NCBI GenBank assembly: GCA_002311835.1
Contig: DBZY01000049.1
Span: forward strand, 49,964-113,963
Reading direction: 5' to 3'
Length of the DNA stretch: 64,000 nt
Origin: Proteobacteria bacterium UBA1148
GTDB lineage: Bacteria > Pseudomonadota > Gammaproteobacteria > Steroidobacterales > Rariloculaceae
Shown in pieces: positions 1 through 36,454 of this stretch. Numbering within the stretch: the stretch's first letter is position 1; the number at the start of each line of letters is the position of its first letter. The position numbers and the translations under genes are program-made. The notes under the pieces were generated by a model, which was not told the origin of the DNA, made no database searches, and saw only the letters and a program-made list of their open reading frames with translations.

Positions 1-2
1 AC

Positions 3-209
3 GATTTCTACAGTTTTCAAGTCTTGCCAAGACTCGGGCGCCTGATCGTGGGTGACGCCGACAGCTACCGCTATCTAGCAGAATCTATCCGCGTTCATCC
101 TGATCAAGATACGTTAAAGACGATGATGGGTACTCAGGGATTTGAGCGATGCGAGTATTACAACCTGTCCGGTGGAATTGTTTCCCTGCACATCGGATTT
201 AAGTTTTAG
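3..209 (+). CDS. ubiE: Ubiquinone/menaquinone C-methyltransferase UbiE, C-terminal fragment (5' end lies outside the window)
   Basis: The open frame from nt 3 reads [68 protein letters not shown]. This closely parallels the conserved UbiE C-terminus (..[40 protein letters not shown]). It is followed by ubiJ-ubiB, as in E. coli. Confidence 0.85.
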
Positions 210-216
210 TCAAATT

Positions 217-855
217 ATGACAAAACGATCAATAGTTGCGATAGAGCACTTGCTGAACCAACACATTCAGGAATCTTCAACTGCACAGGATCGCTTGTTT
301 GCGCTGGTAGGGCGAAGCTTAGCTATAAATATTCAGAATTTTGGCACCAATTTACGGTTGGATGCCGAACAAACCCGTCTCGGGGTTAGCATGATTAGTG
401 ACGATTCAATTGTCGCCACGACCGCCACAATCTCCGGAACGCCTTTAACATTGCTGAATCTCCTGAACGTATCAACTTTGGCAGATTTCAGAGCAGCAGG
501 TGTTGAGTTCAGTGGTGATATCCAAACTGCTGAAGCATTCGCTGAGTTATTGCGCCTTGCGCGACCAGATTTAGAAGAAGAGCTGTCCCATCTAGTAGGG
601 GACATTGTGGCTCATAAAATGGCGCGATCTGTACGACGCGTGAAAGGATGGGGTACCCGCGCCATAGATGCACTCACCATGGATACATCGGAATTTCTCC
701 AGGAGGAAATCCGTCAATTACCACCGCGAGTCGAGGTTGAAAGCTTTAGCCGAGAGGTCGAACGTCTTCGGGAGGATACTGACAGGACAGCTCAACGGGT
801 GGATAAGTTTCTCAAGGGAACCAACGGCGGGGCAACATGGGACGGCTCAGACTAG
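217..855 (+). CDS. ubiJ: Ubiquinone biosynthesis accessory factor UbiJ (SCP2-like), assigned mainly by position
   Basis: A 212-aa ORF starts at the ATG at 217, 8 nt after the ubiE stop. It sits between ubiE and ubiB, the conserved ubiE-ubiJ-ubiB order. Its C-terminal half is charged and helical, and its 3' end overlaps the ubiB start by 19 nt. Confidence 0.6.
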   Translation: MTKRSIVAIEHLLNQHIQESSTAQDRLFALVGRSLAINIQNFGTNLRLDAEQTRLGVSMISDDSIVATTATISGTPLTLLNLLNVSTLADFRAAGVEFSGDIQTAEAFAELLRLARPDLEEELSHLVGDIVAHKMARSVRRVKGWGTRAIDALTMDTSEFLQEEIRQLPPRVEVESFSREVERLREDTDRTAQRVDKFLKGTNGGATWDGSD

Positions 856-2459
856 TCTTAAGGCTGCTTGCTATTCAGCGAACGCTAATCCGGTACGGTC
901 TCGAAGAGATTGTTTGGGAGACGCATTTATTTCGTCCTGTTGGTTGGGTTTTTAAACTGATTCGCAGTCGATCACGACGTGACCCCTTAGGCACAAGAAT
1001 TCGTGAAGCATTAGAAGAACTCGGACCTATTTTCGTGAAGTTCGGTCAGGCCGTTTCAACGCGACGGGATCTTTTACCGACGGATATTGCTGACGAGCTA
1101 GCTAAGTTGCAGGATCAGGTACCACCCTTTTCTTCCGAAGAGGCGCTAAAAATCCTTGCTGACGCGTTTGGTAAAAAAGCAAATGAACTTTTTGCCGACT
1201 TCCAGCAAGAGCCTTTGGCCGCCGCGTCAGTCGCGCAGGTTCACTGTGCAACACTCCACAGCGGAGAAAGTGTGGTTGTAAAGATTCTGAGGCCGCGAGT
1301 TCGAGAATTGATTGAGCGGGATCTGACCGTGCTCTATGCTATCGCGAAACTCGCCGCACGGTACTGGTCCGACGGGCAACGCCTGAGGCCGGTAGAGGTT
1401 GTTAGTGAATTTGAGAAAACACTTCTAAAAGAGCTTGACCTAACACGTGAAGCCGCTAACGCAGCTCAGCTAAAACGCAATTTTGAAGGCTCGGACATGC
1501 TCTACGTGCCCGAGGTGTATTGGGATTACTGTCGATCCAACGTTCTTACCATGGAGCGTATATCCGCAGTCCCCATCAGTGATATCGAGGGGTTGAAGTC
1601 TGCTGGGACCGACATCCGGCGTCTTGCTGAGAATGGAGTTGTAATTTTCTTTACGCAGGTTTTTCGACACAACCTTTTTCATGCTGATATGCATCCTGGA
1701 AACATTTTCGTGGACGTGTCGAATCCAAAAAAACCTCGATATGTAGCAGTAGATTTTGGAATTGTAGGTAGCCTAAGTTCGCGAGATCAGCATTATCTTG
1801 CTGGAAATTTTCTCGCGTTTTTCAAACGAGACTATCATCGTGTCGCACGGCTTCATTTGGATTCTGGTTGGGTGCCCGCAGATACGCAGATAACAGAACT
1901 GGAAGCTGCAATTCGCGCTGTGTGTGAGCCTATCTTCAACAAGCCGTTGAAAGATATTTCATTTGGTTTGGTGTTGCTAAGGCTCTTTGATACGGCTCGT
2001 CAGTTTGACATGGAGGTACAACCACAACTCGTGTTACTACAGAAAACCCTACTAAATATCGAGGGGCTCGGGAGGCAGCTGTATCCAGATCTTGATCTGT
2101 GGGCAACTGCGCAGCCCGTTCTCCAGGAGTGGATGCAGCAACGGACCGACCCACGAGAACATCTGAAGCGGTTGCTAAATAACTGGCCTCAGATAAGTGA
2201 AGATCTCATGTTGTTGCCAGACGCGCTCTACCAGTTCGTACGTAAGGTACTCGAGGAAGTGTACGAAGAAAAGGCCCTCAAGTCCGAACTTAAAAATTTG
2301 CCAATCCGTAAAGCTTTTACTCTGAGTGGTGGACTCTTAGCCGGCGCCGTGCTTCTACTGGCTGGAGTGTTGTGGATCGGGCTTGAAGCGACACCTACCT
2401 GGTTTGGCTGGGGCCCTGTCGCGGCTGGCCTAGCTTTGACGTTTCGAGCTGGTCGCTGA
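837..2459 (+). CDS. ubiB: Ubiquinone biosynthesis regulatory protein kinase UbiB (ABC1 family)
   Basis: 540 aa. It carries the ABC1 signature LGPIFVKFGQAVSTRRDLLPTDIADELAKLQDQVPPF and the kinase-like motif HADMHPGNIF. Two hydrophobic helices lie at the C-terminus. Confidence 0.9.
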   Translation: MGRLRLVLRLLAIQRTLIRYGLEEIVWETHLFRPVGWVFKLIRSRSRRDPLGTRIREALEELGPIFVKFGQAVSTRRDLLPTDIADELAKLQDQVPPFSSEEALKILADAFGKKANELFADFQQEPLAAASVAQVHCATLHSGESVVVKILRPRVRELIERDLTVLYAIAKLAARYWSDGQRLRPVEVVSEFEKTLLKELDLTREAANAAQLKRNFEGSDMLYVPEVYWDYCRSNVLTMERISAVPISDIEGLKSAGTDIRRLAENGVVIFFTQVFRHNLFHADMHPGNIFVDVSNPKKPRYVAVDFGIVGSLSSRDQHYLAGNFLAFFKRDYHRVARLHLDSGWVPADTQITELEAAIRAVCEPIFNKPLKDISFGLVLLRLFDTARQFDMEVQPQLVLLQKTLLNIEGLGRQLYPDLDLWATAQPVLQEWMQQRTDPREHLKRLLNNWPQISEDLMLLPDALYQFVRKVLEEVYEEKALKSELKNLPIRKAFTLSGGLLAGAVLLLAGVLWIGLEATPTWFGWGPVAAGLALTFRAGR

Positions 2460-2469
2460 AGCGGATTCA

Positions 2470-3675
2470 GTGAACGATCACAAAGAATTGCCCTTAGGCG
2501 AGTTCGTCTCGCTTATGGCCATGCTTACGTCTCTGGTTGCGTTGTCAATCGATGCCATGCTTCCAGCATTGTCCGATATTGGCAGGGAACTTGGTGTGCA
2601 GCGACAGAACGATAACCAGTTAATCATCTCTGCATTGTTTCTGGGTGTTGCGTTAGGGCAATTAGTTTATGGCCCTCTATCTGATCGAATTGGCCGCAAA
2701 CCTGGAATCTATGCGGGTCTCACCCTATTCATTTTAGGCTGCCTTCTCTCGGTTATTTCCTGGAATTACTCCGTCATGCTTTGTGGTCGTTTTCTTCAGG
2801 GATTCGGTGCCGCTGGGCCTCGTATCGTAACCATGGCGCTGATACGAGATCGTTGTAAGGGGCGCGAGATGGCTAGAATCACGTCATTCGTGATTACCAT
2901 TTTTGTGATTGTTCCAACAGTTGCGCCGGCCCTGGGGCAAGCAGTTTTGTTGGTTGCAAACTGGCGGATGATTTTTGGCCTCCTGCTTGTGCTTTCGATA
3001 ATTGCATTCATTTGGTTCGGCATACGTCAACCCGAGAGCCTACCACCTAGTCGTCGCACCCAACTCGCACTAGGGACAATGGCTAAGGCTGTAAAAGAGG
3101 TATGTTTAAATCGCACCGCTTTGGGATACGCTTTGGCTGCTGGGCTCGTCTTCGGGGCATTCCTGGGCTACTTGAATTCAGCGCAGCAGATATTTCAGAT
3201 CCAGTTTGACCTAGGGGGGCTGTTCCCCGTTTATTTTGGTGTACTTTCAGTCTCTTTTGGGGCTGCCTCCTATACAAATGCACGCTTGGTCATGCGATAT
3301 GGCATGCGCACTCTTTCGTGGCGAAGTCTGCAAGCGTTGTGCGTTCTGTCTGCGGTCTTTTTTGCATTTTCAGTAATGATTCAAGGTCAACCACCGCTTT
3401 GGACAGTGATGGCATGGGGTGCCACCACTTTTTTCTGTGTAGGTATGGTATTTGGGAACTTCAATGCGATGGCCATGGAGCCGTTCGGTCAACGGACGGG
3501 GCTAGCCGCCGCTATCATCGGGTCGTTTACGACCCTAATTGCGGGGGTGCTCGGGGGACTTATTGGTCAGCTGTACAATGGCACAGTACTCCCGCTGATT
3601 GGAGGTTTCGCTGTCCTTGGGGCAGGGGCGCTTGGTGCTATGTACTGGACTGAATTGGCTTCTCAAGGACGTTAG
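2470..3675 (+). CDS. MFS transporter, Bcr/CflA-type drug resistance family
   Basis: 401 aa and about 12 hydrophobic segments. The MFS motif GPLSDRIGRKP follows TM2, and the N-terminal pattern (SIDAMLPALSDIGRELGV) is typical of Bcr/CflA. It uses a GTG start. Confidence 0.75.
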   Translation: MNDHKELPLGEFVSLMAMLTSLVALSIDAMLPALSDIGRELGVQRQNDNQLIISALFLGVALGQLVYGPLSDRIGRKPGIYAGLTLFILGCLLSVISWNYSVMLCGRFLQGFGAAGPRIVTMALIRDRCKGREMARITSFVITIFVIVPTVAPALGQAVLLVANWRMIFGLLLVLSIIAFIWFGIRQPESLPPSRRTQLALGTMAKAVKEVCLNRTALGYALAAGLVFGAFLGYLNSAQQIFQIQFDLGGLFPVYFGVLSVSFGAASYTNARLVMRYGMRTLSWRSLQALCVLSAVFFAFSVMIQGQPPLWTVMAWGATTFFCVGMVFGNFNAMAMEPFGQRTGLAAAIIGSFTTLIAGVLGGLIGQLYNGTVLPLIGGFAVLGAGALGAMYWTELASQGR

Positions 3676-8253: not shown

Positions 8254-9284
8254 TACGCCAGCCCCATCCCGACAGACTCGAGCTGTTTGATGAACCGTGC
8301 GCCTATGCCATCATTCAATATCTCGCGCGCGCGCGTTACACCACTCTGTGGGTTTGTAACTTCTCCAGTAACCTCCAATGCGAGTGCTGCTCCGAGAATT
8401 AATGCTTCACGGTGAGCAAGGGTATCTCCGCCGCACAAGGCGTTGCGTAACCGAACAGCATTCTCCTCTGGCTCGCCGCCTTCAAGGTCTTCGGCTGAGC
8501 AGCGGGTGAGCCCATAGTCTGCTGGATCGCGGACTGTTCTCTCAACTGAACCGGGGCGAACATCGAAACACAGAAAAGGGCCAACCGGCGTTGGCTCATC
8601 CCACCCCGGTGCTCCGTGGATGACTAGGCTACGCTCGGCATTCATACCTGATAGCGTGTGTGCCATTAGTTCTGCCATCGATTCGCTAAAAGCTCCAATG
8701 ACATGAAAAGCAGGTCGCGCCGGGTTTGTTAATGGTCCCAGGATGTTGAAGACTGTCCGAACACCTAATGCCGTACGTACCGGTGCAATAGCCTTCATTG
8801 CGGGGTGATAGTAAGGGGCGAAAAGAAATGTGAAGCCCAACGCCTCCAAACAAGCCGCGGTTTGTTGATTGTCTAACGGTATGGGTAGCCCTAGCGCTTG
8901 TAGCACGTCAGCGCTGCCGGAGCGACTCGAGATCGAACGGTTTCCGTGTTTCAGTACCTTTGCACCACAGGCGGCTGCTAACAGGGCGCTGCCCGTTGAG
9001 AGGTTCAGACTCCCCGAGCTATCTCCTCCGGTGCCAACAATATCCACATAAGATTCACCCTCGGGGATAGGAGGTTGAACTGCCAGTTCTCGCATGGCTA
9101 GAGCAAATCCCCTAATTTCAGCGGCTACCTCCCCTTTTGAGCGCAACGCGATGAGTAATCCCCCGACCAATGGAGCGGGCAAATCTCCGCTAGCCATCTC
9201 GCGCAATATGGAAGCGGATTCTTCCTCGGTAAGGTTGGTTCCCGCTAAAATTTTTTCAAGCATTTTGACAGCTTGTGAACTCAT
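8253..9284 (-). CDS. trpD: Anthranilate phosphoribosyltransferase
   Basis: It carries [23 protein letters not shown] and [10 protein letters not shown]. An ATGA overlap joins it to the trpG stop. Confidence 0.9.
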
Positions 9285-9889
9285 TTTTGTCCCCCACCGG
9301 CTTTCACCGCGTTCCGTTCCGGGTAGAGAAAATTTTCAAGTAATGTTGGTCCATCCGGTGTCAGGATACTCTCCGGATGGAACTGTACGCCTTCCACGGG
9401 CAACACTTTATGGCGGACGCCCATGATTTCACCCTCCTCTGTTCTGGCGGTTACTTGTAAAACGTCAGGTATTTGTTCCCGGTGCGCCGCAAGGGAGTGA
9501 TAGCGTCCGGCATTGAAAGGATTGGGGAGTGTTCTATATAAAGTTTCGCCATCGTGGTCTACTCGGGAAGTTTTTCCGTGCATCAGCATGCCTGCTGCCA
9601 CAATCTCCCCGCCGAAGTGCTCGACTATACATTGGTGTCCAAGACAGACACCGAGCACGGGGATTTCCCCTGCAAAGTTGTCAATCATCGCGAGCGACAC
9701 CCCAGCATCGGATGGGCGGCCTGGACCAGGAGAGATCACTAAGTGGGTTGGGTCTATTTTTGTGGCTGCAGTTATGCCTATCGCGTCGTTACGGTGTACT
9801 GATACCCTCGCTTCAAGAATCAGAAAGGCCTGCACCAGGTTGTAGGTGAAGGAATCATAGTTATCTATCAAAAGAAGCCGTGCGCTCAC
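9281..9889 (-). CDS. trpG: Anthranilate synthase component II (glutamine amidotransferase)
   Basis: It contains [13 protein letters not shown], the catalytic GVCLGHQ, and FHPES. A GTGA overlap joins it to the trpE stop. Confidence 0.9.
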
Positions 9890-11316
9890 AGTCCCTTCTC
9901 CACAATTTCCAGTGCTTGCTTCAGAATAGCGCTCTTTGAGAGCACCTCCTGGTACTCATGTTCTGGGTTGCTGTCGGCAACGATGCCAGCGCCCGCTTGG
10001 AAGCTATACTCGTTACCATTGAAGACCATTGTGCGGATGGTAATGGCTTGGTCCATATTGCCGTTCTTTGACAGGTAGCCAACAGTGCCGCCATAGAGAC
10101 CTCTACTAATCGGTTCCATCTCCGAGATCAATTCCATTGCTCGCACCTTTGGTGCGCCGACCAGCGTTCCGGCAGGAAAAGCTGCTGCGAATAAATCTAG
10201 AGCGTCATATTCTTCCGCCAGTTTGCCTCGTACGCCGCTTACGATGTGCATGACATGGCTGTAGCGCTCGATTTTCTTATAGGGTTCGACGTGAATAGAA
10301 CCCGCTTTGGCAACCCTGCCTAGATCATTTCTCGCCAGGTCGACCAGCATGACATGCTCAGCATTTTCCTTTGGATCTGCGAGCAATTCGGTCTCAAGCG
10401 CAGCGTCCAATTTTGAGGTCTCTCCCCGGGGCCGAGTTCCAGCGATTGGTCTGAGCGACGCTTCCTGCTGATCCAGTCGTACTAGCGCTTCGGGAGAGGA
10501 CCCTGCGATCTTAAGATCACCGAGTTCGAAAAAATACATGTAAGGCGATGGATTCAAGAGACGCATCGCTCGGTAACACTGGAAGGGGTCTAGATCTGTC
10601 TTTCCCGAAAAACGGATAGAAAGAACAATTTGGTAGATGTCTCCGGCGGCGATGTGAGCTTTGCAGCGTTCGACTCTAGCTATGAACTCCGATTTATCCA
10701 AGCTACCCGACGCCTTTGAAAATCCCCGTTTTTTCGGCTGATCTGAGCGCTGAGAATGGGTACGGTGATCAATACTTTGATGCAGTGCGTGGACAACCCG
10801 AGAGCGCAATTGTTGACGTTCGTTTTCGGTTCCCGAGTGGAGTAGCGCTACTCTCCGCGTGAGATGGTCAAATACGAGTAAAGATGCTGGTGCGACCAAC
10901 GCTGCTTGCTGTAATCCACTGAGCTCTGCCTGGTTTGGAGGGAGCCTCTCGAAATAACGTACGACGTCATAACCATAAGCTCCGACCAGACCACCAGAGA
11001 AGGGAACGCTATCGATCCTAGGATATAACGCGGGGGATCGGTCCAGCGTTTCGCGCAACACGGAGAGCCACTCTGACCCACTTTCTGGCCGTTGTGTTTT
11101 CTGACCATCCACCACGAGTCGGTCTGCGTAAAGTTCCAGGGTTGGCCCGGGGCCTAGTCCCAGGAACGAATAACGCGCTAGGCGTTCGCCGCCCTCAACA
11201 CTTTCCAGAAGGAACCGTGGTTCAAGAGCGGAAACGTGGCAGGCTTCCTGTTTAAGCTTTAGATACGCCGATACCGGCGTGTCCAGATCTGCGGCGATGT
11301 CAAATGGTGCTTGCAT
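9886..11316 (-). CDS. trpE: Anthranilate synthase component I
   Basis: It shows [14 protein letters not shown] (the Trp-feedback region) and the chorismate-binding C-terminus ([37 protein letters not shown]). The ATG is at 11316, and an in-frame TTG at 11319 is an alternative start. Confidence 0.9.
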
Positions 11317-11343
11317 CAAAGTGATTCTCTAGCCTCTATAAAT

Positions 11344-11377
11344 AAAAAAACCCATCTCCGGAGGTACGGAGACGGGC
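11344..11377 (-). terminator. Intrinsic terminator forming the trp attenuator, 25 nt upstream of trpE
   Basis: The minus strand reads GCCCGUCUCCG-UACCUC-CGGAGAUGGG followed by UUUUUUU. That gives a 10-bp stem with one G-U pair, a 6-nt loop and a U7 tract. Confidence 0.75.
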
Positions 11378-11408
11378 TTGCATGATCGAAACGGACTCTT
11401 AGGTCAGA

Positions 11409-11489
11409 TTACGTGCGCAGTACCCTCTCCGCTGGCGAGCCTCGCCACCAGCGCTGTACCCGGGAATGAATGCTTGCAGGTCCGCTCAT
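11409..11489 (-). CDS. trpL: trp operon leader peptide (26 aa, tandem Trp codons)
   Basis: The minus-strand ORF is ATG AGC GGA CCT GCA AGC ATT CAT TCC CGG GTA CAG CGC TGG TGG CGA GGC TCG CCA GCG GAG AGG GTA CTG CGC ACG TAA, giving MSGPASIHSRVQRWWRGSPAERVLRT. It ends 31 nt before the terminator stem. It is below the 60-aa cutoff of the supplied ORF track. Confidence 0.7.
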   Translation of the reverse strand: MSGPASIHSRVQRWWRGSPAERVLRT

Positions 11490-11496
11490 GGCGGGG

Positions 11497-11526
11497 AGTA
11501 TGTCCCCAGGCGCTCTTGAGGGTCAA
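11497..11526 (-). promoter_or_regulatory. Candidate sigma70 promoter for the trp leader and operon
   Basis: The minus strand has TTGACC, an 18-nt spacer, then CATACT, ending 7 nt before the leader ATG. It is a weak match called by eye only. Confidence 0.3.
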
Positions 11527-11549
11527 GCTCGCAGAGGCTCTGTTACGCC

Positions 11550-13364
11550 CTACAGCTCATACAGGAGGGGCAGAACGACCGAGAAACCAAGCCACATGAT
11601 GAGAGCCAAAGGCAACCCGACCCTGAGAAAATCGGTAGCTTTGTAACCGCCTGCCGATAGCAGGAGCAAGTTAGTCTGATAGCCAAAAGGGGTTGCGTAA
11701 CTCATGTTGGCCCCAAAGATTACCGCAAGGATGAACGGCTCCGGCGAGACTCCGAGTTGATCTGCAATCTGTATAGCAACTGGCGCGCCAATCACGCCGG
11801 TGGCGTTGTTAGAGACGATATTGGTAAAAATTGCCATGACCAACATCAAAATACTGAGAATCACTGGTATTGGTAATCCTCCCACGCCGGCAACCAGCGA
11901 TTGGGCGAGATAAAGTGCGCCACCTGTTTCGATCATCGCTACGCCCAACGCCATGCTTGCAACGATGACCATAATTACCTGTGGTGACAAAGCGCCTGAT
12001 GCGTCACTCCAGCGGAGGCAGCGAGTCGCCAACATCAAACCGACGCCCGTCACGGCAGCACCAGAGATCGGCATGATGCCCAGCGCAGCCGCTAGAATCA
12101 CGATTGCCATGATCGCTACGGCACGTGGTGCGCGATGGGTGTAGGGGAGGTTAGTAGTACCGTCAAGCACTAGAGTAGTGTTTGAGCGTTTTAGTTGTTC
12201 TAGCTGGGGACCGGTTCCCTGCACCAGTACGATATCCCCAGCGTGTAGGGAAGTTGCGCCAATATCGCTGGAGATTTCCTCTAGGTCGGAGCCATAGGCG
12301 CGATGAAGTGCCAGTGGTAAGAGTCCCGTTCGTTGCGCGAACCTGCTGCCTAAAAGGCTTGCGCGGTACAGCATGGAATCACGTGTAACAACAATTTCTG
12401 CTAAGTGTTGAGGTTCTTCATCGTCCTGTTCCGCTCCATGCTCGCTATGCAAAGTGGCTCCTATTTGCTTCTCGAAACGCTTGAGGCGCTCTGGCATATC
12501 CCGAACCGCAAGCCGGTCACCTTCGCGTATCGTTACTGATGGGAGCCTGGTAACCGACAGATCTTCGCCTCGATCGATCCGATCAACACGCATCTCGTTA
12601 TCGGTAAGGGCCAAACACTCGGCAAAGCTTTTTCCACAAATCGCACTGTCTGCGTTGACGTAAAAAAGCGCACTGAAAACCCTTGGTGCGGTGTCAGACA
12701 AAGGGGCCTTCCGTTCAGGTAGAAGCCGGGGTGCTACCAGCCAGAGGTACGCTAAGCCAATGCTACCGACGATCAGGACGGGGAGAGCAAAATCGAACAT
12801 CTCCAGTTGTGTAACGCCTTGGTCTGCGGCAATGGAGACAACGATTAGATTCGTTGAAGTGCCGATGGTGGTAGCCATGCCTCCCACCAGAGTTGCTAGC
12901 CCGACGGGCATCAGTATGGAGGATGGCGCGAGCTGGGTTCGCACTGCGACGCCGATAAGCATCGGTAACAACATGATGACAATAGGGGTGTTATTTAAAA
13001 ATGCACTTAAAACGGCGCTAATGACTATTGTGCCAAGGCTCGCCAAACGAGGTCGTACCATCCAGGTTCTGGCAAGAAAAATTGCTAGGGGTTGCAGTGC
13101 CCCGGTGGTTTCGAGTCCCTTACCCATGATCATCAATGCGCAGACAGCAATGAGTGCTTCATGACCGAATCCAGCAAGAAATATGGTCGGTGCCAGTACC
13201 CCACCATCAGCTTCGTATGGGTACAGTTGGAAGCTCGTGATCAGGATGACGAGTATCGCCAGTCCCGATGCCTCCAGAGGCAGCCTGTCTCGGGTAAACA
13301 GATACAGCGTAAATCCGGTCAGTAGTAGTACGAAGATGCCATGGTTGTCGGGAAGGTTGGGCAC
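11550..13364 (-). CDS. SLC13/DASS-family anion permease with central tandem TrkA-C (RCK C-terminal) domains
   Basis: 604 aa. Hydrophobic N- and C-terminal halves flank a soluble insert of about 170 aa (..VTIREGDRLAVRD.. and ..LHAGDIVLVQGT..), which is typical of TrkA-C pairs in CitT/SLC13-like permeases. Confidence 0.8.
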   Translation of the reverse strand: MPNLPDNHGIFVLLLTGFTLYLFTRDRLPLEASGLAILVILITSFQLYPYEADGGVLAPTIFLAGFGHEALIAVCALMIMGKGLETTGALQPLAIFLARTWMVRPRLASLGTIVISAVLSAFLNNTPIVIMLLPMLIGVAVRTQLAPSSILMPVGLATLVGGMATTIGTSTNLIVVSIAADQGVTQLEMFDFALPVLIVGSIGLAYLWLVAPRLLPERKAPLSDTAPRVFSALFYVNADSAICGKSFAECLALTDNEMRVDRIDRGEDLSVTRLPSVTIREGDRLAVRDMPERLKRFEKQIGATLHSEHGAEQDDEEPQHLAEIVVTRDSMLYRASLLGSRFAQRTGLLPLALHRAYGSDLEEISSDIGATSLHAGDIVLVQGTGPQLEQLKRSNTTLVLDGTTNLPYTHRAPRAVAIMAIVILAAALGIMPISGAAVTGVGLMLATRCLRWSDASGALSPQVIMVIVASMALGVAMIETGGALYLAQSLVAGVGGLPIPVILSILMLVMAIFTNIVSNNATGVIGAPVAIQIADQLGVSPEPFILAVIFGANMSYATPFGYQTNLLLLSAGGYKATDFLRVGLPLALIMWLGFSVVLPLLYEL

Positions 13365-18107: not shown

Positions 18108-18167
18108 ACAAGTTGTCAAATGTGTTTGCGGGGTGATTTGAGCCAGTGAATTATTCTTTCTTCAATC

Positions 18168-18608
18168 TCATCCCCAGCAATCTCGGTTTCGGAGATACAC
18201 TGTCCTCGGACCGAAATCCCCGCGCGATGCACACTTTAGTGAGTCGCCGGGAACGAGAGGATGCCATGAGGCGAGTCCTCTGCCTTCCATGAGTCGCCGA
18301 TAAGCACACGTAGTAGGCATCCATTTCAGGTCCTCCAAAGTTTCATGGCTCAGCACGACGCAGTCCACAACATGTTCTAGTCGAGTTGGGTACTGTGTAC
18401 AGCGGCATTCCGAAATGTTCAATAAGCGGCAGGCGACGTCGGTATACAGTACTTCCCCTGTGTCCTCGTTTTCGAGTTTGTGCAAACAGCAGCGACCGCA
18501 CCCATCACACAGCGACTCCCATTCTGATTTGCTCATCTCAGATAAGGATTTAGACTCCCAGAAAGGCTTGGACTTTGTTTGTTTTTGCTTACGGGATAAT
18601 TTGGCCAT
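18168..18608 (-). CDS. ycgN: YcgN-like UPF0260 cysteine-cluster protein
   Basis: The stretch [50 protein letters not shown]...C.C..Y parallels E. coli YcgN ([35 protein letters not shown]). I took the start at the ATG at 18608. Confidence 0.7.
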
Positions 18609-18646: not shown

Positions 18647-19603
18647 ATGAAAGCCGCGTTTCTTGATTTTGCAACCCTAGGACCGGGAGTAAATACTGCT
18701 TCCTTGGATAAACTGCTCCAGGTGAGTTACCACACGAACTCTAATCATGCAGAGATCCTCGAGAGACTTCACGACAAAGAAGTCGCGCTGCTAAACAAAG
18801 CAGTTCTCGATCGGGATATCATTACAACAAGCGGAGAGCTAAAACTCATCGTACTGGCGGCGACCGGAACAGATAATGTTGATTTGTCAGCGACCGAGAA
18901 GTGTGGAATCGCTGTTTCCAATATTCGCAACTACTGTACGGATGCTGTAGCGCAACATGTCATGGCCTTGATTTTGGGACTCACTCGACAGGTTGGAGGT
19001 TACCGGGCTCTCGTCTCGGCCGGGGCCTGGCAGCGCAGCGAGGCGTTCGCTCTATTTGAGTATCCGATTAGGGAGCTAACGGGTAAGACCCTCGGAATTG
19101 TGGGCTATGGGATCCTAGGACGTGCCGTGGCAAAGGCCGCTCGTTGCTTCGGTATGGAGGTGTTGATTGCCGAGCGTATCGATGCGGAGAAAGACACTAT
19201 TCGAGAAGACCGGATTCCACTCCGCAGTCTGCTCCAGCAGGCAGACGTAGTCAGTCTTCATTGCCCACTTACGAACTCGAATCATCACATGATCAGCACC
19301 AGAGAGCTTCGTCTCATGAAAAAAGATTCCTTGTTAATCAACACGGCACGCGGAGCTTTGATTGACAGCCAGGCGTTGGTGGAAGCGCTTGATGCGGGGA
19401 TCATTGCCGGGGCCGGGATTGACGTGCTGGCGAAGGAGCCGCCAACGGATGACGAACCGCTACTTAGACCCGGTATTCCGAATTTAATACTGACCCCTCA
19501 TATCGCTTGGACTGCAAAGGAATCTCGGCAGCGCGCGTTGGACCAGATGGTAGAAAATATAACGGATTTCTTAGGTGGTGGGCGACTCAGAAGAATTGTC
19601 TAA
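18647..19603 (+). CDS. D-isomer-specific 2-hydroxyacid dehydrogenase (glycerate/hydroxypyruvate reductase-like)
   Basis: It has the NAD-binding motif [14 protein letters not shown], the catalytic-region motifs NTARG.LID..AL and DV...EP, and HIAW. The start is uncertain (18611 or 18647). Confidence 0.8.
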
Positions 19604-19638
19604 AGGGCGGTGCGCCAGACACTCATAAACTTCTGGTC

Positions 19639-19666
19639 ATTCGTTCGAATCCAATCGGAACCACCA
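19639..19666 (+). other. tRNA 3'-end-like fragment (T-arm, acceptor 3' strand, discriminator and CCA); not a complete tRNA
   Basis: The sequence is attcg-TTCGAAT-ccaat-cggaacc-a-cca. That comprises a canonical T-loop, 4 of 5 T-stem pairs, a 7-nt acceptor 3' strand, a discriminator A and CCA. Upstream there is no matching 5' acceptor strand (GGTTCCG), D-arm or canonical anticodon arm. Confidence 0.45.
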
Positions 19667-19981
19667 CCCATAAACGACTGATACCAACGCTTTCAGCGCT
19701 TGGTGTCGATGTGCGCGCCTTTCGTGACATTGCTCTGGTGATCTTCTGGTGACCACCTAATTTGCTCATTCATCTGCGCTTGGTCTGTGTCTATTGGCAC
19801 GTTTACCCCTTAATTCTCTCCTTCATACCCATGTTTGTCTCCAAAGGGGCAGGGCAGGATGCCGCCCCCACCCCATACCCATATTAACTACTGCTCACAC
19901 ATTTCTAGCCAAATCGGCAAAATGTCTACAATATAATAAAAAAACCGCCATATTCTTGCATTATCTTTGTATCTGCCCCAA

Positions 19982-19995
19982 TATTGTCGACAATA
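19982..19995. promoter_or_regulatory. Perfect 14-bp palindrome TATTGTCGACAATA, a candidate operator for the GntR-family regulator encoded in the prp module
   Basis: The palindrome lies 18 nt upstream of the prpD ATG. Its core tGTcgACa fits the generic GntR/FadR-type operator pattern (GT-Nx-AC inside an A/T-rich palindrome). Confidence 0.4.
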
Positions 19996-20012
19996 ATACG
20001 CGTGCCCCACTC

Positions 20013-21461
20013 ATGACAGCATTTCTCGGGACGAGAGAGAGTCTACGGCCATCTGCCGACAAGCTCTTTGTAGACATTGCGGAATACGTACTGGCGCGAG
20101 AACCGGGGAGCGCTGAAGCCCGAACCACCGCCTTTCACTGTCTGCTCGACACGCTGGGTTGCGGCATCCTCGCACTCAACTATCCCGCTTGTCGGAGCGT
20201 ACTCGGTCCCCTCGTTCCTGGTGCGGATTTCGCTGGAGGTGCGAGAGTTCCGGGTACAGCGTTCAAGCTCGACCCAGTAACGGCAGCTTTCAATATTGGA
20301 GCCATGATTCGCTGGCTCGACTTCAATGACACGTGGCTTGCAGCCGAATGGGGACATCCGTCCGACAACCTTGGCGGCATCCTTGCAGTCGCGGACTATC
20401 TCGATCGTCAGGAAGAAGAACCGGCACTAGCTGTCGGCGACGTCCTTACCGCCATGATCCAAGCGCACGAGATCCAGGGTGTACTAGCGCTCAACCATGC
20501 TTTCAATCGTGTCGGTCTGGACCACGTTCTGCTCGTTCGGATTGCAACCACGGCCGTCGTTACGCGCATGCTCGGCGGCACTCGCGAGCAGATCACCGAC
20601 GCTGTCTCAAACGCGTGGATTGACGGCGGCGCACTCAGAACCTATCGCCACGCTCCGAATACGGGATCGCGAAAAAGCTGGGCCGCAGGCGACGCGACAA
20701 GCCGCGGCGTCCGCCTCGCTTTGATGGTGCTACGCGGCGAAATGGGTTACCCCTCTGCATTGTCCGCTCAGACGTGGGGATTTCAGGACGTGTTGTTTGA
20801 CGGGACAGCGATCGAGCTCGAGCGACCACTCGGCTCCTACGTCATGGAAAATATACTGTTCAAGCTATCTTTCCCAGCCGAGTTCCATGCACAGACAGCT
20901 GTTGAAGCCGCGATGACCCTTCATCCCGAAGTATCGGACCGACTCGACGCTATTGCCGAAATCGAAATCGAGACGCAGGAGGCTGGAGTGCGCATCATCG
21001 ATAAATCAGGACCTCTCGCAAATCCAGCAGATCGCGATCATTGCATTCAATACATGGTAGCGGTGCCGCTGATATTCGGCCGGCTCACGGCCGATGACTA
21101 CGAGGAAGATATAGCGCAAGATCCCCGTATCGATGCACTGCGCGAGAAGATGATTGTGCGAGAGAACCGACAGTTCAGTGCCGACTATCTCGACCCCGAC
21201 AAACGCGCGATCGGCAACGCAATAACGATCAGGTTCGAAGATGGCACGTCGACAGACCGTGTCGCCGTCGATTATCCGATCGGTCATCAGCGGCGGCGTG
21301 CGGAGGGTATCCCCGTACTGCGAGAAAAGTTTGAACGAAATCTTCGCAGTTACTACGGCGGCGATCAGACTGACACGATTCTAGCGGCATGTTCCGATCT
21401 TTCCGGATTGCAGGAAATGAGTTTCTGTAACTTTATGGACTTGTGGGTAACAGTCGAATGA
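20013..21461 (+). CDS. prpD: 2-methylcitrate dehydratase (MmgE/PrpD family)
   Basis: 482 aa from the ATG at 20013. It contains [41 protein letters not shown] and [11 protein letters not shown], which match the PrpD pattern. The longer ORF-track N-terminus runs through non-coding-looking sequence. Confidence 0.88.
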
Positions 21462-22135
21462 TAGCGGAACTTCACAAACACCCGACGACGATTGCTTCGC
21501 GACTCACGGAGGAGTTAACGGACGCAATCGTTACAGGCGAGATCGCCGCCGGCGAGAAGATTAGCGAGCCGAACCTAGCTAACCGTTACGATGTCAGTCG
21601 TGGACCACTTCGTGAAGCCATCCGACGCCTCGAAGGACGCGGCCTCGTAAGACATGTGCCTCACGCCGGGGTCCGCGTCGTGACACTCGAACTCGACGAA
21701 GTTGTCGAGCTTTATGCAATTCGAGAAGCCCTAGAAGGTATGGCCGCCAGGCTTGCGGCCGATCACATGAGTGACACGGAGATCGAAGCTGTTCGCGAAC
21801 TACTCGATGAGCATGAGGTGGCGGTCCAGAAAAGCGAAGGCCGCGAGTACTTCCAGCAGGAGGGCGATCTGGATTTCCACTACCGAATAGTGATGGCGAG
21901 CGGCAATCAAAAGCTTATAGCGCTTCTCTGTGGTGAGCTTTATCACCTCGTGAGAATGCATCGCTACCGATCGAGCCGCACGGCGTCCCGACCTCAGCGG
22001 GCTCTGACCGAGCATCGTCGTATTCTCGACGCTGTTGCCGAACGCGACGGAGAACTTGCCGAACTCCTCATGCGCCGCCATCTTGGTGGAGCGCGCCAGA
22101 GTATCGCGACGCAACTGGAGAAGCCGAATGACTGA
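21458..22135 (+). CDS. GntR-family transcriptional regulator with FCD ligand domain (probable propionate/2-methylcitrate regulator)
   Basis: The N-terminal winged helix-turn-helix ([53 protein letters not shown]) is followed by an FCD-type helical C-terminus with H residues (..DLDFHYRIV.., ..EHRRILDAV..). An ATGA overlap joins it to prpD. Confidence 0.85.
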
Positions 22136-23015
22136 ACGGTCTCGTCAGACTCTCCAGGACGCTCTCAAGGCTCAAACGCCCCTGCAGATCGCAGGCGCCA
22201 TCAATGCGTACTCTGCCTTGCTCGCGGAACGCGCTGGATTCCGAGCGATTTATCTTTCTGGCGCAGGAGTCGCCAACGCCTCATTCGGTATGCCCGATTT
22301 GGCGATGACCACACTTAACGACGTCCTAGAAGATACTCGCCGAATCACTGGCGTTACCCGTTTGCCGTTACTCGTTGACGCGGATACGGGCTGGGGCACG
22401 GCATTCAATATCGCCCGTACGACTCGCGAGCTCATCAGAGCAGGTGCCGCGGGTATGCATATCGAAGATCAAGAGCAGGCGAAGCGCTGTGGGCATCGTC
22501 CCAACAAGGAAACGGTATCGACTGAAGAGATGTGTGATCGCATCAGAGCGGCTGTCGATGCCCGGATAGATGATCAATTCGTCGTCATGGCGCGCACTGA
22601 TGCGTTCGCCCATGAGGGTGAGGAAGCTTCCCTAGATCGCGTGTGCGCCTATATCGAAGCCGGCGCAGACATGATCTTTGCGGAGGCTCTGTACACACTC
22701 GACGACTACCGAGAGTTCACCAGCACGATCAACGTACCCGTACTTGCCAACCTTACGGAGTTCGGACTGACGCCGTGTTTCTCGACCAACGAGCTCGCCG
22801 ATGTCGGCGTGGCGATGGCGCTCTATCCGCTTTCGGCATTCCGCGCGATGAGCAAAGCCGCACTTACGATCTACGAGACGATACTCCGCGAAGGAACACA
22901 GAAGCCGGTTCTGGATTCTATGCAGACGCGAGAAGAGCTGTATGAGGTACTCGGCTATCACGACTACGAACGAAAGCTCGACGAACTTTTCGCAGCGCGT
23001 GAGAAGAAAGAATGA
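22128..23015 (+). CDS. prpB: Methylisocitrate lyase
   Basis: It contains [30 protein letters not shown], the active-site loop EDQ...KRCGHRPNK, and ARTDA. An ATGACTGA overlap joins it to the regulator gene. Confidence 0.9.
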
Positions 23016-24142
23016 ACAGTAAAAAGACCGACCAGGCCAGTCTGCGTGGCGTGTCTGCCGGCGAGACGGCCATCGCAACCGTTGGAAAAGAAGGCCACGG
23101 GCTCACCTACCGAGGTTACGACATCCTAGAGTTGTCCGATTCTGCAACGTTTGAGGAGGTAGCGTGGTTACTGCTGTACGGCGAGCTGCCCAGCACTGCT
23201 GAGCTGACTGCATACCTGAGTGAGCTGCGATCACTTCGCGAGCTACCGGCTTCGCTCTGTGAAGTTCTCGAGCGGATTCCAGCCGAAACGCACCCGATGG
23301 ACGTGCTACGGACGGGCTGCTCCATGCTCGGCACGCTCGAGCCCGAGCGCGATTTCTCGCAGCAGCTCGATTCGGCCAATCGGCTGATCGCGACATTTCC
23401 CGGCATGCTCCTGTATTGGCATCACTTCGCAACGAATGGCGCACAAATCGCAACTCAGTCGAACGAGGAAACGCTGGCGGGACATTTCCTGCATCTGCTA
23501 CATGGCGAGGTGCCCAGCGAACTGCATCGTCGCGCGATGGACGTGTCATTAATTCTTTATGCGGAACACGAGTTCAACGCCTCTACGTTCACGGCCAGAG
23601 TATGCGCGGCAACGCTCTCTGATCTTCACTCGGCCGTAACGGGCGCTATCGGGACCTTGCGTGGACCGCTGCACGGTGGCGCGAATGAGGCTGCGATGGA
23701 ATTGATCGAACAGTTCGACTCGGCGGGCGCTGCTCGCGTCGGCGTCAAGGAGATGCTCGAGCGAAAAGCCAAGATTATGGGATTCGGCCACGCGGTTTAT
23801 AAAGAATCCGACCCGCGCAATCAGGTTATCAAGGCATGGTCGCAGAAGCTGGCCGAGGATGCCGGCGACACCGTGCTCTACCCTGTGTCAGAAGCCATCG
23901 ACACGGTGATGTGGGAGGAGAAACGCCTTTTCCCGAATCTCGACTTTTATAGCGCGTCGGCCTACCACTTCATGGGCATTCCGACCTATCTCTTTACACC
24001 CATTTTCGTGTGTTCCCGGATAATTGGCTGGGCAACGCACATCATGGAGCAGCGCGCGAACAACAAGCTGATCCGACCCGCCGCAGACTACACGGGTCCC
24101 GAGACGAGACCATACGTCGCGATGGCAGAGCGAGCTTCATGA
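23012..24142 (+). CDS. prpC: 2-methylcitrate synthase
   Basis: 376 aa of the short (type I-like) citrate synthase family. It contains [43 protein letters not shown] and DFYSA. An ATGA overlap joins it to prpB. Confidence 0.88.
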
Positions 24143-24213
24143 CGCAGAAATTCCAGACACTCTACCGGGAGTCGCTCGACGATCTCGAAAGTCTATGGGC
24201 CGAGGGTAACTAG
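24139..24213 (+). pseudogene. prpE: Remnant of a propionate--CoA ligase (prpE/acs family) gene: N-terminal 24 codons only
   Basis: An ATG overlaps the prpC stop (ATGA) and opens [24 protein letters not shown]. This parallels the PrpE/Acs N-terminus (..F/Y.RS...PE.FWAEQA..). The frame ends at the TAG at 24211-24213, which shares bases with the stop of the convergent ybbA-like gene. Confidence 0.5.
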
Positions 24214-24908
24214 TCAGCGCTATGCGATCTTGATTTGATGATGCGGCCGGCAGCCATCTCGAACATTAGATCACAGCGGCCGGCAGCTGTAAGGTCGTGG
24301 GTGACCAACACCAGCGTTGTATTGGCCGCTGCATTAAGCTCAAAGAGTAGATTTAGAATCCGTCCACCCGTTTTATTATCCAAATTTCCAGTAGGTTCAT
24401 CGGCGAACAGAAGTGAAGGGCTTGTTACAAAGGCTCGAGCGATGGCAACTCGCTGTTTCTCGCCGCCGGAAAGTTGTCGTGGATAATGATATAAGCGAGA
24501 GTCGAGGCCAACCTGGTTCAATGCTTCTCGGGCATGATCGGTGGGGTTCTCAGCGCCACTCAACTCTAGGGGTAGGAGTACATTCTCGAGCGCGGTCAGG
24601 GAGGGAAGGAGGTGAAACGACTGAAAGATAAATCCAACCTGCTGATTTCGTAGCTGCGCTCTACCATCTTCGTTCAGCGCCGTGAGTTCTACACCGGCTA
24701 ACCAGACCTCGCCGGATGTTGCCTCGTCTAAGCCTGCCAACAGCGCCAACAACGTTGATTTCCCGGCTCCGGAAGTTCCAACAATCGCAGCCGTTTCTCC
24801 GCTATTTACACTAAGGCTGGCGTCATCCAGGATGGTCAACTCCCCTTCTGGGCTGGTAACCTTCTTAGTTAAGGCGCGCGCCACAAGTAAAGAGCTAGGT
24901 TTGGTCAT
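24210..24908 (-). CDS. ybbA: ABC transporter ATP-binding protein, YbbA/LolD-like
   Basis: It carries Walker A GTSGAGKSTLL, LSGGEKQRVAIARA, and Walker B LLFADEPTGNLD. It is divergent from tesA, as in E. coli. The start could be 24908 or 24923. Confidence 0.8.
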   Translation of the reverse strand: MTKPSSLLVARALTKKVTSPEGELTILDDASLSVNSGETAAIVGTSGAGKSTLLALLAGLDEATSGEVWLAGVELTALNEDGRAQLRNQQVGFIFQSFHLLPSLTALENVLLPLELSGAENPTDHAREALNQVGLDSRLYHYPRQLSGGEKQRVAIARAFVTSPSLLFADEPTGNLDNKTGGRILNLLFELNAAANTTLVLVTHDLTAAGRCDLMFEMAAGRIIKSRSHSAD

Positions 24909-25548
24909 GTTATCCAGAGGCATTATTTCTGCTCGTTTTTTTGTTACCGCTACCATCGCAGCAGTGGTTATCCTTCTGTGGACTATCCCCGCTAATCCAG
25001 CCGGACAGACCATAGTCGTAGTAGGCGATTCGCTCAGCAGCGGCTATGGGCTGCGTATCGAACAATCCTGGGTTGCAATGCTACAGGATCGACTGCATGC
25101 AGAAGGTTACGGTTATGAAATTATCAATGCCAGTGTTCCGGGTGATACAAGTTCGGGAGGACTGGCGCGGTTACCAAGGCTTTTAGAGGCACACCAGCCA
25201 ACCCTGGTGATCATTGAGCTTGGTGGGAATGATGGGTTACGGGGACAATCTATAGAGAGGCTTCGCGAAAATCTGCGAACCATGATTGAGTTGGCTCAGG
25301 GGAGCGGTGCAACGCCTATTCTCACAGGGATCAGAATTCCGCCCAATTACGGTTCGGCGTACGCTGAGGCGCTAGCTGGCACGTATCCGGAACTCTCCCG
25401 ACAACTCGGTGTACCGTTGGTTACGTTCCTGATGGAAGGAGTAGCCTTAGACAAAAACTTGATGCAACCTGACGGGATTCATCCAAATGCTGACGGTAAT
25501 GCAGTCATGCTAGAGAATGTCTGGATGGTGCTGGCGGAACTCTTGTGA
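24907..25548 (+). CDS. tesA: SGNH/GDSL arylesterase / acyl-CoA thioesterase I
   Basis: A signal-like N-terminus is followed by block I VVVGDSLSSGYG, block III ELGGNDGLRG, and block V DGIHPN. I chose the ATG at 24907; upstream in-frame codons are antisense to ybbA. Confidence 0.8.
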   Translation: MLSRGIISARFFVTATIAAVVILLWTIPANPAGQTIVVVGDSLSSGYGLRIEQSWVAMLQDRLHAEGYGYEIINASVPGDTSSGGLARLPRLLEAHQPTLVIIELGGNDGLRGQSIERLRENLRTMIELAQGSGATPILTGIRIPPNYGSAYAEALAGTYPELSRQLGVPLVTFLMEGVALDKNLMQPDGIHPNADGNAVMLENVWMVLAELL

Positions 25549-34972: not shown

Positions 34973-36277
34973 CTAGCGATCGGCAATGGGTTGATAGTCT
35001 CTTTGGGCTCGACCGATATAGAGTTGCCGTGGTCGGCCAATGCGTGACTCGGGATCTCTAACCATTTCTCTCCACTGAGCCGCCCATCCGACGGTTCGAG
35101 CAATGGCAAACATCACGGTGAACATGGCTTTCGGGATGCCAAGGGCTTGGTAGATGATGCCCGAATAAAAGTCGACATTAGGGTAAAGATTTTTTTCTAT
35201 GAAGTATGAATCCTTCAAGGCGATTTGTTCCAGCTCCAGCGCCAGCTCGAATAGTGGTGTGTCCTCTCCTTGATCGAGTTTTTCCAATACGCGGTGGCAC
35301 ATCTGCCGAATGATCGTCGCACGTGGGTCATGATTCTTGTAGACCCTATGTCCAAATCCCATCAACCGAAAAGAATCATTCTTGTCTTTGGCTCTTGCAA
35401 TGTATTTATTTATGTTCTTGGCGTTGCCAATCTCTTCAAGCATGTTGATGACCGCCTCGTTGGCACCACCGTGAGCGGGCCCCCAAAGCGCTGAAATGCC
35501 TGCTGAAATAGCTGAGTAAGGATTCGTGCCTGAACTACCAGCTAGCCTAACGGTCGAAGTACTGCAGTTTTGCTCATGGTCGGCATGTAGGACGAATAAA
35601 AGATTGAGAGCCTCTGCTGAGACGGGATCAACCTCGTAGGATCCTGATTGCGCTGGAACAGAAAAAAACATGTTCAATAGATTGCTGCAGTAATCGAGTT
35701 CGTTCTTTGGGTAAACGAACGGTTGTCCAAGTGAGTGTTTATAGGCAGCAGCAGCAATTGTGGGGATCTTAGCCATGATGCGGTGTGAAAATACATCACG
35801 ATCCGCCGAATCCTGTATATCGGTTGTGTCGTGGTAAAACGCGGACATACACGCGACAACGCCGGAAACCATAGCCATTGGGTGCGCATCATGGTGGAAA
35901 CCATTGAAGAACCGCAGGAACGATTCATGTAACATGGTGTGAGTTCGGATCGATTCGTCAAAGGCATTAAGCTCGCTTTCAGTCGGAAGCTCGCCATATA
36001 GCAATAGGAAAGCTACCTCAATGAAGGTGGATTGCTCAGCCAGTTGTTCGATAGGGTAACCTCTGTACATGAGCACACCCTGTTCGCCATCAATGTAGGT
36101 AATGGCACTGGAACAGCCGGCTGTGGAGCCGAAGCCGAGATCGTAGGTGAACACACCCTGTTTGCCGTACAGCGATGAGATGTCAAGCACACTAGGACCA
36201 ACGGTTCCTGTACGACGCTGGAGTTCAAACTCCGCTCCAGATTCTGTGTTTTTTAGGCTGTAAGGCTTGTCGCTCAT
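34973..36277 (-). CDS. gltA: Citrate synthase (type II, large form)
   Basis: It contains [49 protein letters not shown] and [12 protein letters not shown] chose the ATG at 36277 because AGGTG lies 6 nt upstream. Confidence 0.92.
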
Positions 36278-36454
36278 TACGCGCACCTAGCTCCTTCAGA
36301 ATTTTTATAACCGTTCTTGGCCAAGGACAGGCTCAAAGAATACGGCGCGCGCGTTTCAGACCGGCTTGAGGCCATCAATCACGACATAGACAAAGTATTA
36401 TAGCAGAGGGCTCGTACGCTCGGTTGTGCGCAATGGGTGATTGCGTTGGCAGAC

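Follow-up and report, generated by a model that had tools for sequence, protein, structure and literature searches.

A 64,000-nt stretch from the uncultured marine gammaproteobacterium UBA1148 (contig DBZY01000049.1, positions 49,964–113,963; hereafter the window) carries a 2-methylcitrate-cycle module, prpD-gntR-prpB-prpC, that ends in a short stump of prpE. Comparison with other loci, cited below by their L numbers, indicated that the module lies on a foreign 4.56-kb piece of chromosome that was probably inserted, recently, into the spacer between a 2-hydroxyacid dehydrogenase gene and ybbA. We put the probability of this reading, in which the module is functional and prpE was cut at or before insertion, at about 0.82. 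Horizontal acquisition from a higher-GC source, as an original prediction made from this DNA had proposed, is well supported by the empty site in relatives, the composition of the module and the GC contexts (0.55–0.66) of its nearest copies. The same prediction described the module as a decaying island, and its genes do not bear this out.

A scan anchored on Ppc, with one genome per species, yielded 80 loci in which the window proteins were placed by tblastn. The closest loci belonged to uncultured Gammaproteobacteria, several of them labelled Candidatus (Ca.) Rariloculaceae; the host stands near this family. The neighbourhood citMHS-ABC-ppc-(CxxC)-(2-hydroxyacid dehydrogenase)-ybbA-tesA-fadD-...-pyrF-HD-aroB was kept in ~40 loci, with Ppc identities from 93% down to ~60%. 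Within the syntenic ppc–ybbA neighbourhood, tblastn placed prp genes in 0 of these ~40 loci, and in ~20 of them the dehydrogenase gene adjoined ybbA directly. The two flanks of the insert, both 91–93% identical to the window at the nucleotide (nt) level, abut in L003 (Ppc 93%), where the left block ends at window position 19623 (L003 13800) and the right block starts at 24184 (L003 13799). The site was also empty in L113 (Ppc 86%). The scaffold L112 (ERZ23495346) joins a filled to an empty allele across a run of N (about 1474–1485), so both alleles, or two close strains, occur together in that sample. In its empty allele the end of the dehydrogenase gene passes straight into GACACT|TGAAAGTTTACGGGCCGAGGGTAATTAG and then into ybbA, and on the right side its flank matches the window at 98.9% identity. 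The module-free site that an acquired module leads one to expect in related genomes was thus found in more than 20 relatives, including L003, L113 and the L112 allele.

With filled and empty alleles both at hand, the junctions could be placed to within 3 nt. The left junction is 19623|19624, and the insert runs from 19624 to 24184–24186 (4,561–4,563 bp), with bases 24185–24186 assignable neither to the insert nor to the native side. It sits in a spacer of ~50 bp between the convergent dehydrogenase and ybbA genes. No clear target duplication was seen, and microhomology at the junctions amounts to 2–3 nt at most (CT or CTC). Neither the open reading frame (ORF) listing nor NCBIfam profiles revealed integrase, transposase or recombinase ORFs in or beside 19624–24185, and terminal repeats were not seen there. 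Independent assemblies span both junctions, an ENA contig (L002, 99.9%) the left one and a Logan contig (L111, 100%) the right one.

The composition of the module differed from that of its surroundings. Its GC content was 0.573, compared with 0.507 in the rest of the window, and each of the four genes deviated from 53 background genes by z = 3.0–3.9. GC at third codon positions (GC3) was 0.59, 0.59, 0.62 and 0.68 in the four genes (z = 2.3–4.8), against 0.505 ± 0.036 in the same background. Tetranucleotide distance, calculated for 4.5-kb windows against the whole window, was maximal at 20001–24500 (z = 4.8); each of the five windows that deviated most overlapped the module. The compositional contrast and third-position G/C bias of the original prediction were therefore confirmed, and its hand-counted GC values of 60, 56, 48 and 52% were exact on recount. 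It had also cited the stop/start overlaps at every internal junction. All four are present (ATGA at 21458, ATGACTGA at 22128, ATGA at 23012 and ATGA at 24139), but such overlaps occur in 11 of the 34 other close same-strand gene pairs of the window and would have been inherited with the module, so they say nothing about its origin.

The closest relatives of the module appear to lie outside the host family. The best PrpD matches had identities of 92, 90, 89, 88, 87 and 87%, followed by matches at 82% and lower; PrpD of Ca. Rariloculaceae was 71% identical. The close copies shared both the order prpD-gntR-prpB-prpC and its overlaps, yet they stood in unrelated neighbourhoods (L083, L086, L087, L088/L089, L095, L098/L099 and L100–L102), and the flanking ORFs of L083, L086–L088, L098 and L100 had nothing in common with the loci of the window's family. 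Over 4.1–4.3 kb, nucleotide identity to the window was 91.5% for L083, 88.6% for L086, 88.4% for L087 and 87.2% for L088. Flank GC of the nearest copies was 0.55–0.66, and module GC stayed at 0.57–0.59 in hosts whose flanks ranged from 0.51 to 0.66; a home lineage of ~0.57–0.60 GC (L086–L088 type) fits best.

Synonymous divergence (dS) of the module between the window and L083 was ~0.31. This is close to the 0.16–0.28 obtained for the flanking genes when the window was compared with L003, its sister species; against L036 (Ppc 81%) dS of the flanks was already saturated. PrpD is 92% identical to that of L083, whereas Ppc of the L083 host, a 6.03-Mb contig, did not occur among the best 120 Ppc matches (down to 65% identity), and the other megabase contigs of the PrpD cluster were likewise absent from these matches. 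With PrpD at 92% and low dS against a host Ppc below ~65%, the modules are far more alike than their hosts, and by identity and dS the module appears phylogenetically incongruent with its host. The gene order, by contrast, is not the peculiarity that it was initially taken for. The arrangement prpD-gntR-prpB-prpC(-prpE) recurred at PrpD identities from 71% (L103, Ca. Rariloculaceae, no prpE) through 82% (L107, with prpE) up to 92%, and judging from these loci it is the normal order of this bacterial group. Plasmids carried prp operons that were just 60–80% identical, none covering at least 80% of the insert.

Two of these copies have features of their own. In L083 (14130–21449), which lies on a 6.03-Mb circular contig, the module (GC 0.58) is below its flanks (0.60–0.66), and Fic, DDE-transposase and Mu-like transposase genes come after it; the module was probably acquired there too. 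A resemblance of the DNA downstream of the L083 module to the 3' end of ybbA, which would reverse the direction of transfer, was considered and rejected, as there was no protein or nucleotide homology beyond the stump. The L098 contig wraps around perfectly (1–3557 = 9192–12748, 0 mismatches over 3,557 nt) on a unit of 9,191 bp that holds sulfatase, formyltransferase and DUF6152 genes besides the prp module, with a module GC of 0.53 in a context of 0.50; the unit may represent a circular molecule or a tandem duplication, or may be an artefact of assembly.

The right edge of the insert bears on when prpE was lost. In L086, the only close copy with an intact prpE, this gene (634 aa) follows prpC with the same ATGA overlap, and the homology of the window to it ends at 24184. 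The 24-codon ORF at 24139–24213, which the original prediction had read as a shortened prpE, is real, but just 15 of its codons derive from prpE; it is a hybrid whose last eight codons and stop belong to the native spacer (ESLWAEGN* in the frame of the stump). Its stop (TAG, 24211–24213) and that of ybbA (24210–24212 on the minus strand, CTA on the plus strand) have a CTAG palindrome in common. A longer prpE remnant suggested by the match WAE was rejected: these codons read CGG-GCC-GAG in the L112 empty allele and are thus native spacer, so the likeness of LWAE to PrpE is due to chance. All 27 native nt as far as the ybbA stop are present and collinear with two empty-site sequences. Since no native spacer is missing on either side, the right junction is likely to be the original one and prpE to have been cut at or before insertion. 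With only 46 nt left, prpE is not part of the operon; other operons of the group are also without it, so that it is not required for membership in the wider family.

The original prediction had instead placed the loss after acquisition: a full prpD-gntR-prpB-prpC-prpE would have been inserted and prpE then eroded in place by deletions. An intact prpE follows prpC with the ATGA overlap not only in L086 but also in L107 of the 82% clade, and L095 and L098 contain longer, stepwise-decayed prpE remnants with a stop at codon 3, so decay in place does occur in the module family. A later deletion, however, would have needed to stop precisely at the insertion junction while leaving every native nucleotide up to the ybbA stop, and most sister modules in other genomes carry a stump of the same length; this course of events is unlikely. 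The shared stump can also be read as the right end, 44–46 nt into prpE, of a discrete, self-regulated 4.3-kb mobile cassette (prpD-pmiR-prpB-prpC) that spreads among marine Gammaproteobacteria without a mobility gene of its own, possibly as a circular intermediate integrating at short microhomology. Breakpoints lie after +45 in the window, +46 in L088 and L100, +44 in L087 and +31 in L083, in differing downstream contexts; L088 and L100 have ~110 nt of downstream DNA in common, and the L087 stump is fused to the start of a gene lying 75 nt further on in L100. Between L088 and L100 the stump has diverged by 22% and the module by 9%. The stump thus evolves about neutrally, at the rate of non-coding DNA, and selection on it is an unlikely cause of the shared breakpoint. 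The CTC at both junctions of the window insert and the wrap-around of the L098 unit would also suit a cassette. Against it, the neighbour-joining tree, with the groupings (L083,(L087,(L088,L100))) (90% bootstrap) and (window, L086) (59%), permits two independent cuts only, as the former clade may share one; there may have been just these two, yet they fall 1–2 nt apart in a 1.9-kb gene. The left ends of the copies differ, and the 284 bp and tRNA piece at the left end of the window insert do not occur in the others. The window insert and its surroundings are free of recombinase and transposase genes and of terminal repeats, its native target reads CTT rather than CTC, no copies were found in viral contigs, and those on plasmids are too distant. 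We regard a cassette as quite improbable; the near-identical breakpoints may mark a site prone to recombination or a cassette-like unit, or may be coincidental.

That the module is native to the lineage and merely moved within the genome into the dehydrogenase–ybbA spacer is very unlikely. The data cover a 64-kb window of the host genome, and family-level relatives (Ca. Rariloculaceae, L103) hold the same gene order elsewhere in the genome. A native module would nevertheless be hard to reconcile with GC3 values of 0.59–0.68 and a tetranucleotide signature unlike those of the host, or with a Rariloculaceae PrpD at just 71% identity when copies in genomes of 0.55–0.66 GC reach 87–92%. It is hardly credible that the relatives lost a module that is ancestral at this site, or that the contig is an assembly chimera. 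The ppc–ybbA interval does vary within the family, with an immunoglobulin (Ig)-like gene in the same spacer in L010 and other genes in L025, but ancestry would require the module to have been deleted without a scar many times independently, in every relative and in outgroups too. The arrangement in the window does not appear to be chimeric, because both junctions recur in independent assemblies.

Several observations weigh against insertion of a foreign, functional module. GC3 sets the module apart, but the log-likelihood of its synonymous codons under background usage does not (z about +0.5). The direct donor was not found among the fetched loci, sister modules included, in all of which the 284-bp left segment (19624–19907) was without a match. 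The hosts of L083 and L086–L088 are placed outside the family by their GC and by their absence from the Ppc match list, which makes their taxonomy provisional. The empty allele of L112 may be recombinant rather than conspecific, as its left 96 nt are just 91.7% identical to the window. Within the scope of the 64-kb window, a second native prp locus, or prpE or acs, may exist elsewhere in the genome. A simple scan upstream of prpD gave no sigma-70 consensus promoter, and the regulation and enzyme activity of the module are predicted from its sequence.

The proteins encoded by the module were identified with NCBIfam profiles and their curated equivalog cut-offs, and the enzyme matches were full length. 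Compared with six sister copies, the four genes all had ratios of nonsynonymous to synonymous substitution (dN/dS) of 0.07–0.22. The four module genes are full length and, as judged from these ratios, under purifying selection, which is at odds with a decaying island. PrpC is not to be confused with GltA, the housekeeping type I citrate synthase encoded 11 kb away (34973–36286, minus strand), whose GC3 of 0.525 is host-like, compared with 0.68 for the type II PrpC. The large ORFs of the window that were checked included none resembling AcnD.

The product of the gntR gene has an N-terminal GntR helix-turn-helix domain and a C-terminal FCD domain and matched PDB entry 7XP0 over 212 residues (11–222; E = 1e-74). 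We took this entry as Pseudomonas aeruginosa PmiR, since its residues, offset by 14, fit D143, H147, R184, H192 and H214 of PMC9728974. Conserved in the regulator are the four Zn ligands (D, H, H and H) as well as the residues equivalent to R95 and R184, which bind 2-methylisocitrate; the equivalent of S218 is Ala. According to PMC9728974, PmiR represses the prpB promoter via two adjacent sites and is released by 2-methylisocitrate. The regulator gene itself (21458–22135, compared with L083 11446–12123) had a dS of 0.10, against ~0.31 for the three enzyme genes, which hints at recombination within the module.

The left edge agrees with the initial description of a tRNA-3'-end-like fragment followed by about 345 bp of non-coding DNA, with 346 bp counted from the fragment (19622–19666) to prpD. 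Read position by position, the fragment (CTCATAA-ACTTC-TGGTC-ATTCG-TTCGAAT-CCAAT-CGGAACC-A-CCA) comprises anticodon loop (CAT), 3' strand of the anticodon stem, variable loop, T-arm with one mismatch in its stem, 3' strand of the acceptor stem, discriminator and CCA. Joined to a designed complementary 5' half it was called tRNA-Met(cat) by ARAGORN, which serves as a consistency check only, and its layout agrees with that of a real tRNA-Arg in L086. In the native sequence ARAGORN called no tRNA gene in the window, and Rfam gave nothing in 19560–20020 (E ≤ 10). Apart from the tRNA-Arg of L086, nothing resembling a tRNA lies upstream of the other module copies. There, a tRNA-Arg(TCG) gene (9322–9398) is located ~600 bp upstream of prpD, and an exact 19-nt repeat of its 3' end (AATCTCTCCGGGCGCGCCA) lies ~145 bp further, at about 9541–9559. 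Such a 3'-end repeat is the signature of former integration or excision, and the L086 operon thus seems to adjoin a tRNA gene once used as an integration site.

Between the donor-derived DNA and prpD lies a control region that contains two palindromes. Across five module copies both show little or no variation, whereas the surrounding DNA could not be aligned, and of the three matches to them in the 64 kb, two fall in 19908–20012. They are predicted operators of the PmiR-type repressor. A metagenome scan for the operator pair returned eight loci, of which only two are close modules (L094, which equals L087, and L095), none with the 284-bp left segment; neither the pair nor the tRNA fragment had a match in viral contigs (0 each). 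A simple promoter and terminator scan after prpC gave nothing useful.

The insertion of foreign DNA that we favour could have proceeded as follows. A higher-GC relative in the same broad group would have supplied a fragment made up of half a tRNA(CAU) gene (the 3' half), ~240 bp of its own spacer DNA, the 2-methylcitrate-cycle module and the first 46 nt of prpE, which would already have been cut when the DNA entered. Because there are no mobility genes, microhomology does not exceed 2–3 nt and a clear target duplication is lacking, integration by illegitimate recombination is the likely route. In the new host, the repressor would occupy the two palindromes, which may overlap the promoter, until released by 2-methylisocitrate, as with PmiR. 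The four translationally coupled genes would then convert propionyl-CoA and oxaloacetate to pyruvate and succinate, with the rehydration step supplied by a housekeeping aconitase. As PrpE is missing, propionyl-CoA would come from odd- or branched-chain catabolism or from another acyl-CoA synthetase.

Table 1 Features of the insert and its flanks (window positions).
Feature	Position	Strand	Basis or remark
2-hydroxyacid dehydrogenase	18647–19603	+	ORF listing and NCBIfam
Native left spacer, starting after the dehydrogenase stop	19604–19623	.	L003 homology (91–93% nt) stops at 19623; likewise L112 empty allele
3' half of tRNA-Met/Ile2(CAU) gene	19622–19666	+	Position-by-position reading; first 2 nt (CT) also in the native site
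Donor-derived non-coding DNA (putative)	19667–19907	.	Missing from empty-site relatives
Module control region	19908–20012	+	DNA common to other module copies
Operator-like palindromes	AATGTCTACAATAT 19921–19934; ATTGTCGACAAT 19983–19994		Upstream of prpD
prpD, 2-methylcitrate dehydratase (482 aa)	20013–21461	+	NF006943, 808 bits (cut-off 575); dN/dS 0.09–0.14
GntR/FCD regulator (225 aa), PmiR orthologue	21458–22135	+	Pfam GntR and FCD; PDB 7XP0
prpB, 2-methylisocitrate lyase (295 aa)	22128–23015	+	NF008455, 491 bits (cut-off 353); dN/dS 0.08–0.12
prpC, 2-methylcitrate synthase (376 aa)	23012–24142	+	NF009006, 611 bits (cut-off 550); dN/dS 0.09–0.14
prpE stump, first 15 codons + 1 nt (46 nt)	24139–24184	+	Aligns with the start of L086 prpE
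Native right spacer	24187–24213	.	Also in empty-site sequences L003 and L112
ybbA	24210–24956	-	Followed by tesA and fadD

The interval between ppc and ybbA is variable across the family. In L010 (14245–15822) the gene in the same dehydrogenase–ybbA spacer encodes a 439-aa Ig-like surface protein, and in L025 (13480–15210) an MmyB-like regulator and a methyltransferase replace the dehydrogenase. L024, L026 and L075 also vary here, and in several genomes ppc lies directly beside ybbA. The spot beside the 3' end of ybbA seems to accept new DNA repeatedly. A CxxCxxCC-domain gene between ppc and the dehydrogenase gene (18146–18579), kept in most relatives, is missing in L003 (about 12756–12783), which looks like a small deletion.

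The window thus documents a natural case in which a whole metabolic trait, propionate or propionyl-CoA detoxification, would have entered a genome together with its own sensor-repressor. With filled and empty alleles, junctions placed within 3 nt and no mobile-element genes, it can serve as a teaching case for the travel of operons in uncultured marine bacteria. Knowledge of the 2-methylcitrate cycle and of genomic islands is unchanged by it; the recurrent prpE breakpoint, if a true hot spot, would be of modest interest for illegitimate recombination.

Salmonella enterica and Escherichia coli have a prpBCDE operon with a divergent sigma-54 activator, PrpR. PrpB, PrpC and PrpD are common to these operons and the window module, and the prpE stump shows that the ancestor of the module also ended in prpE; the window differs in gene order, in a GntR repressor in place of the sigma-54 activator and in the loss of prpE. 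The P. aeruginosa cluster pmiR-prpB-prpC-acnD-prpF-prpD (PA0797–PA0792; PMC9728974) has an orthologous regulator whose Zn and 2-methylisocitrate residues are kept in the window, and in both the regulator gene lies directly upstream of prpB-prpC and two regulator sites, predicted ones in the window, lie in the promoter region. Unlike that cluster, the window has prpD first with the promoter ahead of it, lacks acnD and prpF and has Ala in place of PmiR Ser218; the likeness of the operators is one of number and position. The order of the module amounts to the pmiR-prpB-prpC core of the Pseudomonas type, preceded by prpD and lacking acnD and prpF. Its own family is formed by the operons of Ca. Rariloculaceae and allied marine Gammaproteobacteria (L103, L107 and L086), which have the same order and coupled junctions; the window module differs from them in being an insert away from the native position, with a composition unlike that of its host. 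Like tRNA-associated genomic islands, it stands out in composition, does not occur in sister genomes and bears a tRNA 3' fragment, here starting in the anticodon loop. It differs from such islands in being without an integrase, an intact tRNA gene at the site and long direct repeats, in that the tRNA piece came inside the insert, and in its size, only 4.6 kb with a single operon. The module is a clean but ordinary instance of horizontal gene transfer, and neither a new kind of system nor a decaying one.

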